From NCBI GenBank assembly GCA_951406725.2, contig OX597817.1, positions 170,252,001 to 170,316,000 on the forward strand: a DNA stretch of 64,000 nt. Reading direction: 5' to 3'. Positions 1 to 46,678 of this stretch are shown piece by piece (within the stretch, counting starts at the first letter, position 1; the number at the start of each line of letters is the position of its first letter). The position numbers and the translations under genes were made by a program. Origin of the DNA: Octopus vulgaris. Its lineage: Eukaryota. The notes beneath the pieces were generated by a model. That model ran no database searches. It saw nothing but the letters and a program-made list of their open reading frames with translations, and had not been told where the DNA came from.

Positions 1-893
1 AACATTCTGGTGATGCTTACTTAATTTTGGCATACAGGGAAAACAAATAGGAGAATTAAGTGTTATTCTCAGATTTCTAAAATTATCTTTTCACACTTTC
101 ACATCAGCAATTTACATACCATAAAATTTTAGAATTTCAAGGCTCAGAATTAAAAAGAAATTTGATAAGAAGTTCTAAGGCTTAGCAAAAAAGAATTCTT
201 ATTGTTCTTTCCATTGTTCATCCCAAACAAAATTTATGCGCTGTGGCCGAATCTGACTCAGCCACTGGCAGCTCGGCCACCAACCGTGACCGTGATGTGG
301 GATGACATCAGCAGCTGGGGAGCTGACCAGAACTTGGGGCTGACCGGAAGAGGAAGGGTGCAGGAGTGGCGCACATGCAGGCAGGAGAGCAGTGGGCCTT
401 TTTGATTGGGGTAGCCAACAGGGCTGGACGTGTGAGCACTTCGACAAGGTAAGGGAAAAGCAGCTGCTATTCTTAGCATTCGGGTCGGGCCATGTGGAAG
501 GATGTTTTATCGCCAGTGAGGTCTGCATCGACGAAGAGAAGGTAGGTGTCTTTACTTCAAATCTCCCGCATATACCACAGTAAGTAACCTAAATCTGAAA
601 CTCAAACTTTTAAGAATGCCTGCAATCATTACATTTCTACTCTTTAGAAAGATTGGAACTCTAAGCCATTAAGTATATCATATATCAAACATTCTGGTGA
701 TGTTTACTTAATTTTGGCATACAGGGAAAACAAATAGGAGAATTAAGTGTTATTCTCAGATTTCAAAAATTATCTTTTCACACTTTCACATCAGCAATTT
801 ACATACCATAAAATTTTAGAATTTCAAGGCTCAGAATTAAAAAGAAATTTGATAAGCAGTTCTAAGGCTTAGAAAAAAAGCCTTCTTATTGTT

Positions 894-1074
894 TGTGAGC
901 CATTTAAGAAACACACAAAAGCCGTTCGATTCACTTCAACATTTAAGTTTAATTTTTCAAAATATTTTCGTCGCTAAAATCCGTGACCTGTTCACTGACA
1001 AAAATCCGTGCTGCATCTCATTCCAGCACACGATCTCAGATCAAATCACTTGCTATGTGAGTACATCTCCATAA
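894..1074 (-). mobile_element. 181-bp retroposon-like insertion carrying the hammerhead motif; 12-bp TSD cttcttattgtt
   Basis: TSD at 882-893 and 1075-1086; the empty site is present in the paralogous block at 196-228. Confidence 0.8.
953..1003 (-). ncRNA. Type-I hammerhead-ribozyme-like motif with G3-C8 swapped core
   Basis: Minus strand: TTTTGTCA-GTGAACA-G-GTCAC(GGATTTTA)GCGAC-GAAA-ATATT-T-TGAAAAA. Stems I, II and palindromic III all form around a GUGAACA/GAAA core. Confidence 0.6.
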
Positions 1075-1604
1075 CTTCTTATTGTTCTTTGCATTGTTCA
1101 TCCCAAACCAACTTTTTAAACGAGGGCAGAATGGCTACCACTGATCCCACAATTAACCATTACTAAACATAGCAGATCAGACTCCAATACATAACAGAGA
1201 TAAGTGGCATAGCTAATAGCAGAGCAAGGGAAGAGTCTGCTCCCACCAAACACATTTTTCAAAATTGGTGCCTTTACAAGATTAAAAAAATTATTTAGTT
1301 CACTTGTGCAATAAAAATCAAATCTCTTTTATTTAGTTAAAAGTGCAGGAGTGACTGTGTGGTAAGCAACTTGCTTACCAACCACATGGTTCCGGGTTCA
1401 GTCCCACGGTGTGGTACCTTGGGCAAGTGTCTTCTATTATAGCCTCGGACCGACCAAAGCCTTGTGAGTGGATTTGGTAGACGGAAACTGAAAGAAGCCT
1501 GTCATATATATATGTATATATTTATATTTATTTTTATTTTATCTAGTTTCAGCTCACGAGCTGTGGCCATGCTAGGGCACCATATATATATATGTATGTA
1601 TGTA

Positions 1605-28110: not shown

Positions 28111-29024
28111 CTATAAATACAAAATGATAATCCAATGTAAATTCTAACAAAATCTTTTCCTACTTTTAACACTGATAAATGTTAAATAAATATAAGATTG
28201 TCAAGAACTTTTATTTGAAATTGCTGGAAAGCAGATATATTCAAAATTTCATCACTCGTAACTGTGAAAAGTAGTTTTATACATCATCATCATCATCATC
28301 GTTTAGCGTCCGTTTTCTATGCTAGCATGGGTTGGACGGTTCTACTGGGGTCTGTGAAGCCACAAGGCTTCATCAGGCCCAGTCAGATCTGGCAGAGTTT
28401 CTACGGCTGGATGCCCTTCCTAACGCCAACCACACCGTGAGTGTAGTGGGTGCTTTTTACGTGCCACCCGCACAGGAGCCAGACGGAGCTGGCAAACGGC
28501 CACAAACGGATGGTGCTTTTACGTGCCACCGGCACGGGGGCCAGGCGAGGCTGGCAACGGACATGAACGGATGGTGCTTTTACGTGCTACCGGCATGGGG
28601 GCCAGGCAAGGCTGGCAACAGACACGAACGGATGGTGCTTTTATGTGCTACCAGCACGGGGGCCAGGCGAGGCTGGCAACGGACACGAACATCTATTTTT
28701 TGTTGAGGAATATCATATTTGAAACTACTTTCTGTTGAGACAGGTCAAATGTTATCAAGGCAAAGAGACTGGCAGAAAATACCAATTCTATGTTTTTGGT
28801 AGATGTTTAACAACATTTATGGAATAATGATGTGATTAAATTTTGCAGTGAAAGAGTTAAAAGAGTAAAAATAAAAAAGACAGTCTCGGAAAGATGTCTT
28901 TTTCCAAAACACAACAGGTGCTAAATAGTTAACAGAAAATAAAATATTTCAGGTAAGCTTGTTGGAAAATTAAATCAAATAAAACATAAGTCATACAAAA
29001 ATGGGTCAAAGCACAATCATATTA

Positions 29025-30235
29025 GTCTGGCCCCCGGGCCGGTGACACGTAAAAGCACCATCCGTTCGTGGCCGTTTGCCAGCTCTGTCTGGCCCCCGTG
29101 CCGGTGACACGTAAAAGCACCATCCGTTCGTGGCCGTTTGCCAGCTCTGTCTGGCCCCCGTGCCGGTGACACGTAAAAGCACCATTCGCTCGTGGCCGTC
29201 TGCCAGCTCTGCCTGGCCCCCGTGCCGGTGACACGTAAAAGCACCATCCGTTCGTGGCCATTTGCCAGCTCTGTCTGGCCCCCGTGCCGGTGACACGTAA
29301 AAGCACCATCCGTTTCGTGGCCGTTTGCCAGCTCTGTCTGGCCCCCGTGCCGGTGACACGTAAAAGCACCATCCGTTCGTGGCCGTTTGCCAGCTCTGTC
29401 TGGCCCCCGTGCCGGTGGCATGTAAAAGCACCATCCGTTCGTGGCCGTTTGCCAGCCCTGTCTGGCCCCCGTGCCGGTGACACGTAAAAGCACCATCCGT
29501 TTGTGGCCGTTTGCCAGCTCTGTCTGGCCCCCGTGCCGGTGACACGTAAAAGCACCATCCGTTCGTGGCCGTTTGCCAGCCCTGTCTGGCCCCCGTGCCG
29601 GTGACACGTAAAAGCACCATCCGTTCGTGGCCGTTTGCCAGCTCTGTCTGGCCCCCGTGCCGGTGTCACGTAAAAGCACCATCCGTTCGTGGCCGTTTGC
29701 CAGCCCTGTCTGGCCCCCGTGCCGGTGACACGTAAAAGCACCATCCGTTCGTGGCCGTTTGCTAGCTCTGTCTGGCCCCCGTGCCGGTGACACGTAAAAG
29801 CACCATCCGTTCGTGGCTGTTTGCCAGCCCTGTCTGGCCCCCATGTCGGTGACATGTAAAAGCACCATCCGTTCGTGTCCGTTGCCAGCCTCGCCTGGCC
29901 CCCGTGCCGGTGACACGTAAAAGCACCATCCGTTCATGGCCGTTTGCCAGCCCTGTCTGGCCCCCGTGTCGGTGGCATGTAAAAGCACCATCCGTTCGTG
30001 CCCGTTGCCAGCCTCGCCTGGCCCCCGTGCTGGTGACACGTAAAAGCACCATCCGTTTCGTGGCCGTTTGCCAGCTCTGTCTGGCCCCCGTGTTGGTGGC
30101 ACGTAAAAGCACCATCCGTTCGTGTCCGTTGCCAGCCTCGCCTGGCCCCGTGCCGGTGACACGTAAAAGCACCATCCGTTCGTGGCAGTTTGCCAGCTCT
30201 GTCTGGCACCTGTGCAGGTGGCACGTAAAAAGCAC
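29025..30235 (+). repeat. 62-bp GC-rich minisatellite (~19 units) expanded inside a (GAT)n-tailed retroelement (element ends at about 30406)
   Basis: Unit gtctggcccccgtgccggtgacacgtaaaagcaccatccgttcgtggccgtttgccagctct; period 62 (starts at 29041, 29103, 29165...). Confidence 0.96.
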
Positions 30236-30870
30236 CCACTACACTCTCGGAGTGGTTGGCGTTAGGAAGGGCATCCAGCCGTAGAAACACTGCCAGATCT
30301 GACTGGGCCTGATGCAGCCTTCCAGCTTCACAGACCCCAGTTGAACCGTCCAACCCATGCTAGCATGGAGAACGGACGCTAAATGATGATGATGATGATG
30401 ATGATGAATAAGGGTTAAATTTGGTGAAGATCTCATCATAACTAAATTTAACGTCTCTTATACATATGCAATAGTCAAATTGGTTTCAAATTTTGGCACA
30501 AGGCCAGCAATTTCAGGGAGGAAGTAAGTTGATTAAAACGACCTCAGTGTTCAATTGATACTTATTTTGTCAACTCCAAAAGGATGAAAGGCAAAGTCAA
30601 CCCCAGTGGCATTTGAACTCAGAACATAATGTCAGAAGAAATGCTGCTAAGCATATTTTCTGGTGCAGTAACAATTCACAATACAGTCATATTACTATGC
30701 ATGTATTTCATCATATGATTAAGCTATTGTTTCTGACTAAATCTTAAACACCAACTATAACTACAATGTCTAATGTGTTCTTAGGATGAAGGTTGACCCG
30801 AACAGAAACAGGTTTCCTACAATAATTAAATAAGCTCCTTTAAGTGCTATTTCTCTCTCTTTTCCAGCTA

Positions 30871-45725: not shown

Positions 45726-46678
45726 TATATATATGTGTGTGTGTGTGTTTGTCCGCCTTCATCTCTTGACAACCAGTGTTGATGCGTTTACAACCCCATT
45801 GTTAGAATAAGTAGTAGACTTTAAAAGAATAAGTACTGTTTGACTAAAACCCTTCAAAGTGGTGCCCCAGCATGACCGCAGTCAAATAACTCGAACAAGC
45901 AAAAGTAACTCTCCATTGTCTTCACACAGCCATCGCTGTATGGTCGGAAAGTTTGCTTGCCAACCACATGGTTTTGGGTTCAGTTCCACTGTGTGGCACC
46001 TTAGGTGTCTCCTTTTATAGGCCTAGGCTCACCAAAGTTTTGTGGGTGAATTTGGTAGATGGAAACTGAAAGAAATCCCATCATGCCTACAGGTACCTGT
46101 GTGAATATGCATGTGTGTTGATGTCTCCTTGTCTTGATATTGTTTCATTGATGTAAATGAATGTGATTCATTTCTAATATTCTGTAGAAACATGTCTGGG
46201 CATGGCAAAATATTACCTTGTTCGGAATCAGGTAAGTGTTGGGAGCAGGAAGAGCATTCCAGCCATAGAAAACCTGCTTCAATAAACTCTGTCCCATGCA
46301 AGTATGGAAGAGTTAAAACAATGCCAATGAATCTCATATCCATGTGTGTATATGTATGTATGTATGTGTTCGTGGCCGTTGCCAGCCTCGCCTGGCCCCG
46401 TGCCGGTGGCACGTAAAAAGCACCATCCGATCGTGGCACGTAAAAAGCACCATCCGACTGTGGCCGTTTGCCAGCCTCGTCTGGCACCTGTGCCGGTGGC
46501 ACATAAAAAGCACCCACTACACTCATGGAATGGTTGGCGTTAGGAAGGGCATCCAGCTGTAGAAACACTGCCAGATCAGACTGGGCCTGGTGCAGCCTTT
46601 TGGCTTCCCAGACCCCAGTTGCACCTTCCAACCCATGCCAGCATGGAAAGCGGACGCTAAACGATGATGATGATGATG

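Follow-up and report, generated by a model that had tools for sequence, protein, structure and literature searches.

A fixed G3-C8 pair in the predicted hammerhead motif of a young Penelope-like element of Octopus vulgaris

The stretch of DNA considered here (hereafter, the window) comprises 64,000 nucleotides of the Octopus vulgaris genome (assembly GCA_951406725.2, contig OX597817.1, positions 170,252,001 to 170,316,000 of the forward strand). Near its left end lies a short insertion that carries, on the minus strand, a motif with the layout of a hammerhead ribozyme in which nucleotides 3 and 8 of the core are G and C, and that can be traced to a Penelope-like element (PLE). An earlier note, made from the letters alone, had described this insertion as a 181-bp mini-retroposon, flanked by a 12-bp target site duplication (TSD) and encoding a non-canonical hammerhead. 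The TSD, CTTCTTATTGTT, is indeed exact, at 882-893 and 1075-1086, and direct reading of the letters finds the G3-C8 motif at 1002-953 of the minus strand. The features are listed below, with hammerhead positions numbered by the established convention; the motif parts were read directly, and pLTR denotes the pseudo-long terminal repeat of the PLE, ORF its open reading frame, UTR an untranslated region and L061 a full-length copy elsewhere in the genome.

1..235, plus: local duplicate of the flank with an empty site (about 194-206)
882..893, plus: left TSD; its final 4 nt agree with the element end as well
890..1019, minus: inverted arm, the 3' part of the pLTR, running from the putative transcription start through the hammerhead and the 5' UTR to the first ORF codons; 94.6% identity to L061
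901..903, minus: in full-length copies, the start codon (ATG) of the element ORF
953-959, minus: 3' strand of stem I, with a private mismatch at 956
960, minus: H17=U; predicted cut 960/959
961-966, minus: palindromic stem III, AATATT
967-969, minus: GAA (G12-A13-A14)
970-987, minus: stem II, 5 bp, GTCAC (987-983) with GCGAC (974-970), and the variable 8-nt loop II (982-975)
988, minus: unpaired extra G between positions 9 and 10.1
989-995, minus: core GTGAACA, that is G3-U4-G5-A6-A7-C8-A9 (G3 at 995, C8 at 990)
996-1002, minus: 5' strand of stem I, TTTGTCA
1018..1019, minus: putative capped start, an A at 1018 with a G before it, the latter being absent there in full-length elements; also within junction microhomology
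1018..1074, plus: direct arm, the PLE 'tail' between two clusters of 3' ends, ORF codons ~13-30; 91-92% identity to L061
1075..1086, plus: right TSD, the identical 12 bp

The insert does not form a single colinear element. In blastn alignments, window positions 890-1018 map in reverse onto the pLTR end of L061 and positions 1018-1074 map directly onto the tail, so that the presumed mini-retroposon resolves into two oppositely oriented pieces of one autonomous PLE, and the insertion has to be considered a 5'-inverted short retrocopy and not a separate family. The flank duplicate at the start of the window, at 95.9% identity, contains the target site once, without the insert. This duplicate belongs to a local duplication of ~314 bp (95.9%) that relates window positions 580-893 to 1-235 and extends to the left of the window, with other repeat sequence lying between the two copies.

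The parent element, to which we refer as family 1, was sought across the 2.8-Gb genome. A 23-nt tag from the 5' UTR that adjoins the motif has 4,331 exact genome matches, and a pattern extending further upstream of the start has 401. At locus L061, self-alignment reveals a ~4.26-kb unit in a partial tandem with an inverted truncated copy, which, together with the two clusters of 3' ends, corresponds to the pLTR organization of PLEs, namely a partial tandem, an inverted 5'-truncated copy and an optional tail. The long frames, about 96-100% alike in the ten loci compared, comprise, in this order, the reverse transcriptase (RT), a cysteine linker and a GIY-YIG-like end, that is, the single ORF of an endonuclease-positive (EN+) PLE with a C-terminal GIY-YIG domain; they reach 777 aa and contain YVDD and YIGETSR motifs, and the hammerhead motif lies ~60 nt upstream of the ATG. 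A full-length homologue with 36% identity produces a GIY-YIG match (6.6e-7), and atlas neighbours contain RVT_1 and GIY-YIG domains. The compact CX2-5CxxC linker is, by eye, like that in the rows for Nematis in Fig. S2 of Craig et al. (PMC8557442; here and below, statements on cited papers pertain to their accessible parts), and this comparison replaced our first assignment of the parent to Neptune. A Naiad or Hydra-clade parent was also considered, given an RT remnant upstream of the motif at locus L019, and was rejected because the homology to L061 ends before the remnant, which is therefore a bystander target. The remnant itself (L019:170-1262) is degraded, Hydra-clade-like by eye and interrupted by a short interspersed nuclear element (SINE) and by a family-1 insertion. 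A metagenome scan for related elements yielded one weak locus (L142) from which the motif is absent, and a pattern scan of viral contigs gave 3 matches, none with the stems, whether judged by eye or by model.

These findings bear directly on the possibility that the short copies are a non-autonomous retrozyme or mini-retroposon in its own right, spreading via ribozyme-cut circular RNA. Such a lifestyle could be read into the numerical excess of short ORF-less copies over long ones (the 4,331 tag matches against the 401 that extend upstream) and into the recurrence of the window layout among the best genome matches. However, all of the sequence is pLTR or tail of an autonomous element, the arm is inverted relative to the tail, the junctions vary between copies, and the copies begin upstream of the motif and not at the cut. 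Head-to-tail monomer arrays cut at the motif, the independent tandem arrangement by which non-LTR retrozymes are recognized, were not seen in the loci examined, where the copies are single or inverted pLTR fragments. The mini-retroposon framing of the earlier note is thus largely refuted, and we consider this explanation highly improbable.

The claims on the motif itself fared better. The core of the window copy departs from the canonical one at positions 3 and 8, and the predicted cut lies where the earlier note had placed it. The mismatches in stem II (984) and stem I (956), one in each, represent decay; the family consensus pairs both. The window copy, decayed and antisense to its own tail, is probably inert. 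A pattern combining the core with stem II is matched once in the window, compared to a mean of 0.01 in 100 shuffles, and a looser pattern has 9,531 genome matches, compared to 16 with the reversed control. Rfam scans detected no hammerhead match for the motif. Family 1 lacks the literal C3-U4-G5-A6-N7-G8-A9 core of the type I minimal hammerhead and is therefore classed as a hammerhead variant, not as a canonical member. Nevertheless, the three-way junction with stems I and II is there, with two-sided pair changes and with the pairs restored in the consensus, as are the 3-8 Watson-Crick pair, U4 G5 A6, G12 A13 A14, A15.1-U16.1 and H17, part of which was demanded by the search patterns. A pseudoknot between the core and loop II was considered by eye and dropped because the loop II variants do not preserve the pairing. 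The 3-8 Watson-Crick pair is part of the active hammerhead conformation (PMC3884650).

Within family 1, the exchanged pair is fixed. In an unbiased sample consisting of the first tag matches on contig C1 (70 loci that yield 80 distinct arms), G3-C8 is found in 63 of the 64 motif-bearing arms, and the consensus keeps the G3-C8 core and re-pairs stems I and II, as had been predicted. Among the first 100 matches listed, C8 accompanies G3 in 75 of 77 cases, with N7 and loop II variable. Older subfamilies are also G3-C8, with varying N7 and loop II; only 229 copies genome-wide have a base other than G at position 3, and none of these, among the first 100 listed, is C3-G8. The stem III palindrome is nearly invariant. 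The expectation of a mobile family whose non-canonical core escapes CUGANGA descriptors is borne out, and Rfam misses it as well. Identity within a family mostly reflects its youth, however, so the sister families were examined.

Three additional families encode downstream ORFs with starts homologous to those of family 1. In family 2 (57% amino-acid identity), the same fold occupies the corresponding place, with C3-G8 and the non-palindromic AGAACU in stem III; its older copies are fully canonical, with A9. In family 3, for which 13 loci were examined and 12 matched, 11 of the 12 have U3-A8, the older relatives of this family being C3-G8, and the fourth family is C3-G8, with stem II the same as in family 1 at L223 and L276. 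Across 27 aligned rows, the 3-8 pair is CG in 16, GC in 5, UA in 4 and unpaired in 2; two-sided changes affect two pairs of stem II and one pair each of stems I and III; and U4, G5, A6, G12, A13, A14 and A15.1 are invariant, most of them being demanded by the search patterns. The covariation score of 0.453 (slid controls do not exceed 0.142) was reached in 0 of 500 shuffles, a count that is not a probability because the rows are related and were pre-selected by patterns requiring part of the fold. Alignment A2 omits 11 of 28 rows (the families with a short stem III and L236) and alignment A3 omits L236. A model built without family 3 recovers held-out family-3 copies with E values from 1e-10 to 2e-3. 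Since the rows are related and partly selected by pattern, the fair count is two independent compensatory swaps, which we infer, by parsimony, to have occurred from a C3-G8 ancestor. The presence of C3-G8 and U3-A8 at the homologous place in sister families upholds the proposal that the G3-C8 swap is compensatory, and suggests that selection maintains the 3-8 pairing.

Several variants in these families deserve mention in their own right. The youngest family-2 copies (L170:2668-2712, and L143-L172) have frames of up to about 1,311 aa and a hammerhead with C9; L274, an older family-2 copy, contains ~33-nt tandem repeats with stem I and half of the core upstream of the full motif; the U3-A8 core of family 3 at L173:2778-2812 is combined with a 4-nt palindromic stem III; and rarer related families with hammerhead-like motifs are represented at L233:1444-1506, L275 and L276, one of them, in a single copy, with an unpaired 3-8.

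Could the match between positions 3 and 8 be a matter of luck, with a dispensable ribozyme in which G3 and then C8, in either order, were fixed by drift in a single master lineage? A single founder suffices to fix any sequence across thousands of copies, and because single mutants are catalytically dead (PMC11167929), an intermediate must have been tolerated; the position-9 change of family 2, the weak folding scores and the missing cut-site peak (all discussed below) would also be at home in such a scenario. Drift, however, does not readily account for the independent emergence of the same type of compensation in family 3, or for stems that covary while loop II, N7 and the flanks diverge. We regard it as improbable, if somewhat less so than an independent retrozyme.

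The ends of the copies provide information on the RNA from which they were made. Forty of the 80 arms end in an 8-nt span just upstream of stem I, with the motif intact; another 13 have their ends inside the 3' half of the motif or beyond it, 5 reach well upstream, and 22 end between the core and the 8-nt span. An extra G is present on all 10 arms that end at one and the same A, compared to 10 of 67 at other ends. An extra 5' G is a recognized signature of cap copying. This pattern, with half of the arms starting at that span, probably reflects copying of an mRNA cap; only one G upstream is shared and the other letters differ between copies, so that a cap is a better fit than a shared exon. 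The 5'-end hot spot is closely preceded, at L061:4700-4725, by a branch-point-like word, ACTAAC, a pyrimidine tract and YAG, in which one may see an initiator or a 3' splice site. Two clusters of 3' ends are apparent, at +38-43 and +96-102, ~58 nt apart. A targeted search for breaks at the predicted cut found 118 copies with a non-T at position 17; among the first 30 of them, 18 qualify as true breaks (stem I homology accounts for 3); the control one base upstream found 110 copies, with 10 true breaks among the first 30, and the +1 control gave 197 matches, a count in which true breaks are unsorted. There is no clear peak at the cut (18/30 versus 10/30, Fisher p 0.07-0.11), hence the templates were mostly uncut, and the genomic copies would derive mostly from uncut RNA.

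Our preferred reading, to which we would assign roughly two chances in three, is that the window contains a short 5'-inverted pLTR-plus-tail copy of a young PLE, likely made from capped, uncut RNA, and that the fixed G3-C8 pair is predicted to keep a slow self-cleaving core assisted by dimerization or by protein. A number of observations weigh against it. None of the 80 arms ends exactly at the predicted cut, the comparison with the base upstream falls short of a clear peak, and half of the arms start upstream of an intact motif, which speaks against a needed cut. Some of the extra Gs can be explained by junction microhomology, and 2 of the 10 arms are one duplicated insertion. The monomer fold is not outstanding (folding z-scores of 0.78 for the window copy and -1.41 for the intact L061 copy), and in the minimum-energy homodimer stems I/II are swapped and the palindromic stem III is not formed. 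Nor is the core under absolute constraint: of 35 loci examined for the youngest family-2 copies, 33 could be matched, and all 33 have C at position 9. The covariation comes down to the two swaps. On the side of the element, the protein of locus L062 has no direct Pfam or PDB match, and the description of the parent as Nematis-like is a clade name given by eye.

Much of this would be expected if the fold were kept for a non-catalytic job, be it protein binding, RNA dimerization for tandem insertion or translation control 60 nt before the ATG, with negligible cutting and with the 3-8 pair as a structural contact. Retrocopies that begin upstream of an intact motif, the lack of a clear cut-site peak, the A9C change and the weak folding scores are all compatible with this explanation, as are the findings that hammerhead mutants had no effect on PLE insertion in vitro and that, in the anole, no RNA-seq reads end at the cut (PMC11167929), and that Naiads thrive without canonical hammerheads (PMC8557442). 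Yet, the Watson-Crick pair that was twice exchanged belongs to the active conformation (PMC3884650), the nucleotides listed above as invariant remain so in all 27 rows, even if most were pattern-demanded, and two independent compensatory swaps fit selection on a catalytic fold. A purely structural role therefore appears unlikely to us, while being the most serious competitor.

Under the preferred reading of a retained self-cleaving core, the following chain of events can be envisaged. Initiation by RNA polymerase II ~14 nt upstream of stem I would yield the element RNA, and transcripts of any pLTR, short ones included, would be bound by the element protein at the 5' end of the ORF. From one of the two internal sites, the RNA would be reverse-transcribed into AT-rich DNA that has been nicked, the body being turned around relative to the tail by a template switch. 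Two motifs on tandem or paired RNAs might jointly build stem III via the AAUAUU palindrome, with the G3-C8 pair placing the 2'-OH of nucleotide 8 and so keeping the active geometry. A minority of the RNAs would then be cut after U17, whereby multimeric or read-through transcripts would be processed or expression damped, whereas the capped uncut RNA would be copied into the genome, insertion being independent of the cut. In this light, the family-1 motif is most likely a type I hammerhead that is slow and depends on a partner or on the element protein.

Hammerheads in PLEs are poor cutters, and cutting is unnecessary for insertion in vitro. Two independent swaps of a pair in the active core provide comparative evidence for a selected catalytic fold, despite copies having been made from uncut RNA. 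Furthermore, the sister families supply natural C3-G8, G3-C8, U3-A8 and A9C variants in one scaffold for kinetics, and because thousands of motif copies are missed by CUGANGA descriptors and by Rfam, ribozyme censuses and statements that an element has no hammerhead may undercount. A more far-reaching possibility, decidedly tentative, is that of an allelic series: a recently active animal family with a natural G3-C8 pair, the sisters of which sample three 3-8 states plus A9C, would indicate that PLEs tune ribozyme speed down to keep capped uncut RNA as the main template, and that swapped cores are hidden in many 'hammerhead-less' elements.

Other repeats occur in the window. A SINE-like repeat at 1343-1500 recurs in many of the loci retrieved, and a GC-rich imperfect repeat array with repetitive open frames on the minus strand occupies 29000-30260, with a similar unit near 46300-46500.

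How do these findings compare with known systems? Minimal type I hammerheads sit in the pLTRs of PLEs (Cervera and de la Pena 2014, PMC4209133), and the octopus motif resembles them in its pLTR position, the extra nucleotide that separates position 9 from position 10.1, the G10.1-C11.1 pair, the short palindromic stem III, the dispersed single copies and the opposite-strand pairs from truncated elements. It differs in that stem I has 7 bp in family 1, compared to 4-5, and in that, in the accessible part of that paper, only C3-G8 and U3-A8 are reported. Natural U3-A8 cores (PMC3088659; PMC4209133) likewise involve a compensatory change of the tertiary 3-8 pair, and octopus family 3 has the same pair; G3-C8, in contrast, requires two transversions with a pyrimidine at position 8, and a single genome has all three states in its sister families. 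The engineered C3G/G8C double mutant is partially active, also in the Poseidon element PAc of the anole (PMC11167929; PMC8495972), and, according to PMC11167929, C3G/G8C gives a partial rescue, cleavage is assisted by protein and the dominant template is uncut RNA. The octopus genomic pattern, including the two 3'-end clusters, agrees with PAc in the tail, the two RT starts, the AT-rich targets and the uncut template; unlike the engineered mutant, the octopus swap occurs naturally and is fixed in a family of high copy number. EN+ PLEs of the Nematis/Neptune type (PMC8557442) share with family 1 the RT, the CX2-5CxxC linker, the C-terminal GIY-YIG, the tail, the partial tandems with an inverted 5'-truncated copy and the (TA)n targets, whereas the octopus Naiad and Hydra families listed in the same paper differ in domain layout or have canonical cores. 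Non-LTR retrozymes (PMC7229834; bioRxiv 10.64898/2026.07.22.740005) are, similarly, short, non-coding, hammerhead-bearing and PLE-related, but consist of tandem monomers with canonical cores, in contrast to the dispersed truncated or inverted pLTR copies of the octopus. No natural G3-C8 hammerhead was found in the published literature searched, although subscription papers, supplements and Repbase/Dfam could already contain one. What is added to these known systems is a fixed, high-copy G3-C8 pair in a young animal element, together with covariation of that pair across sister families.
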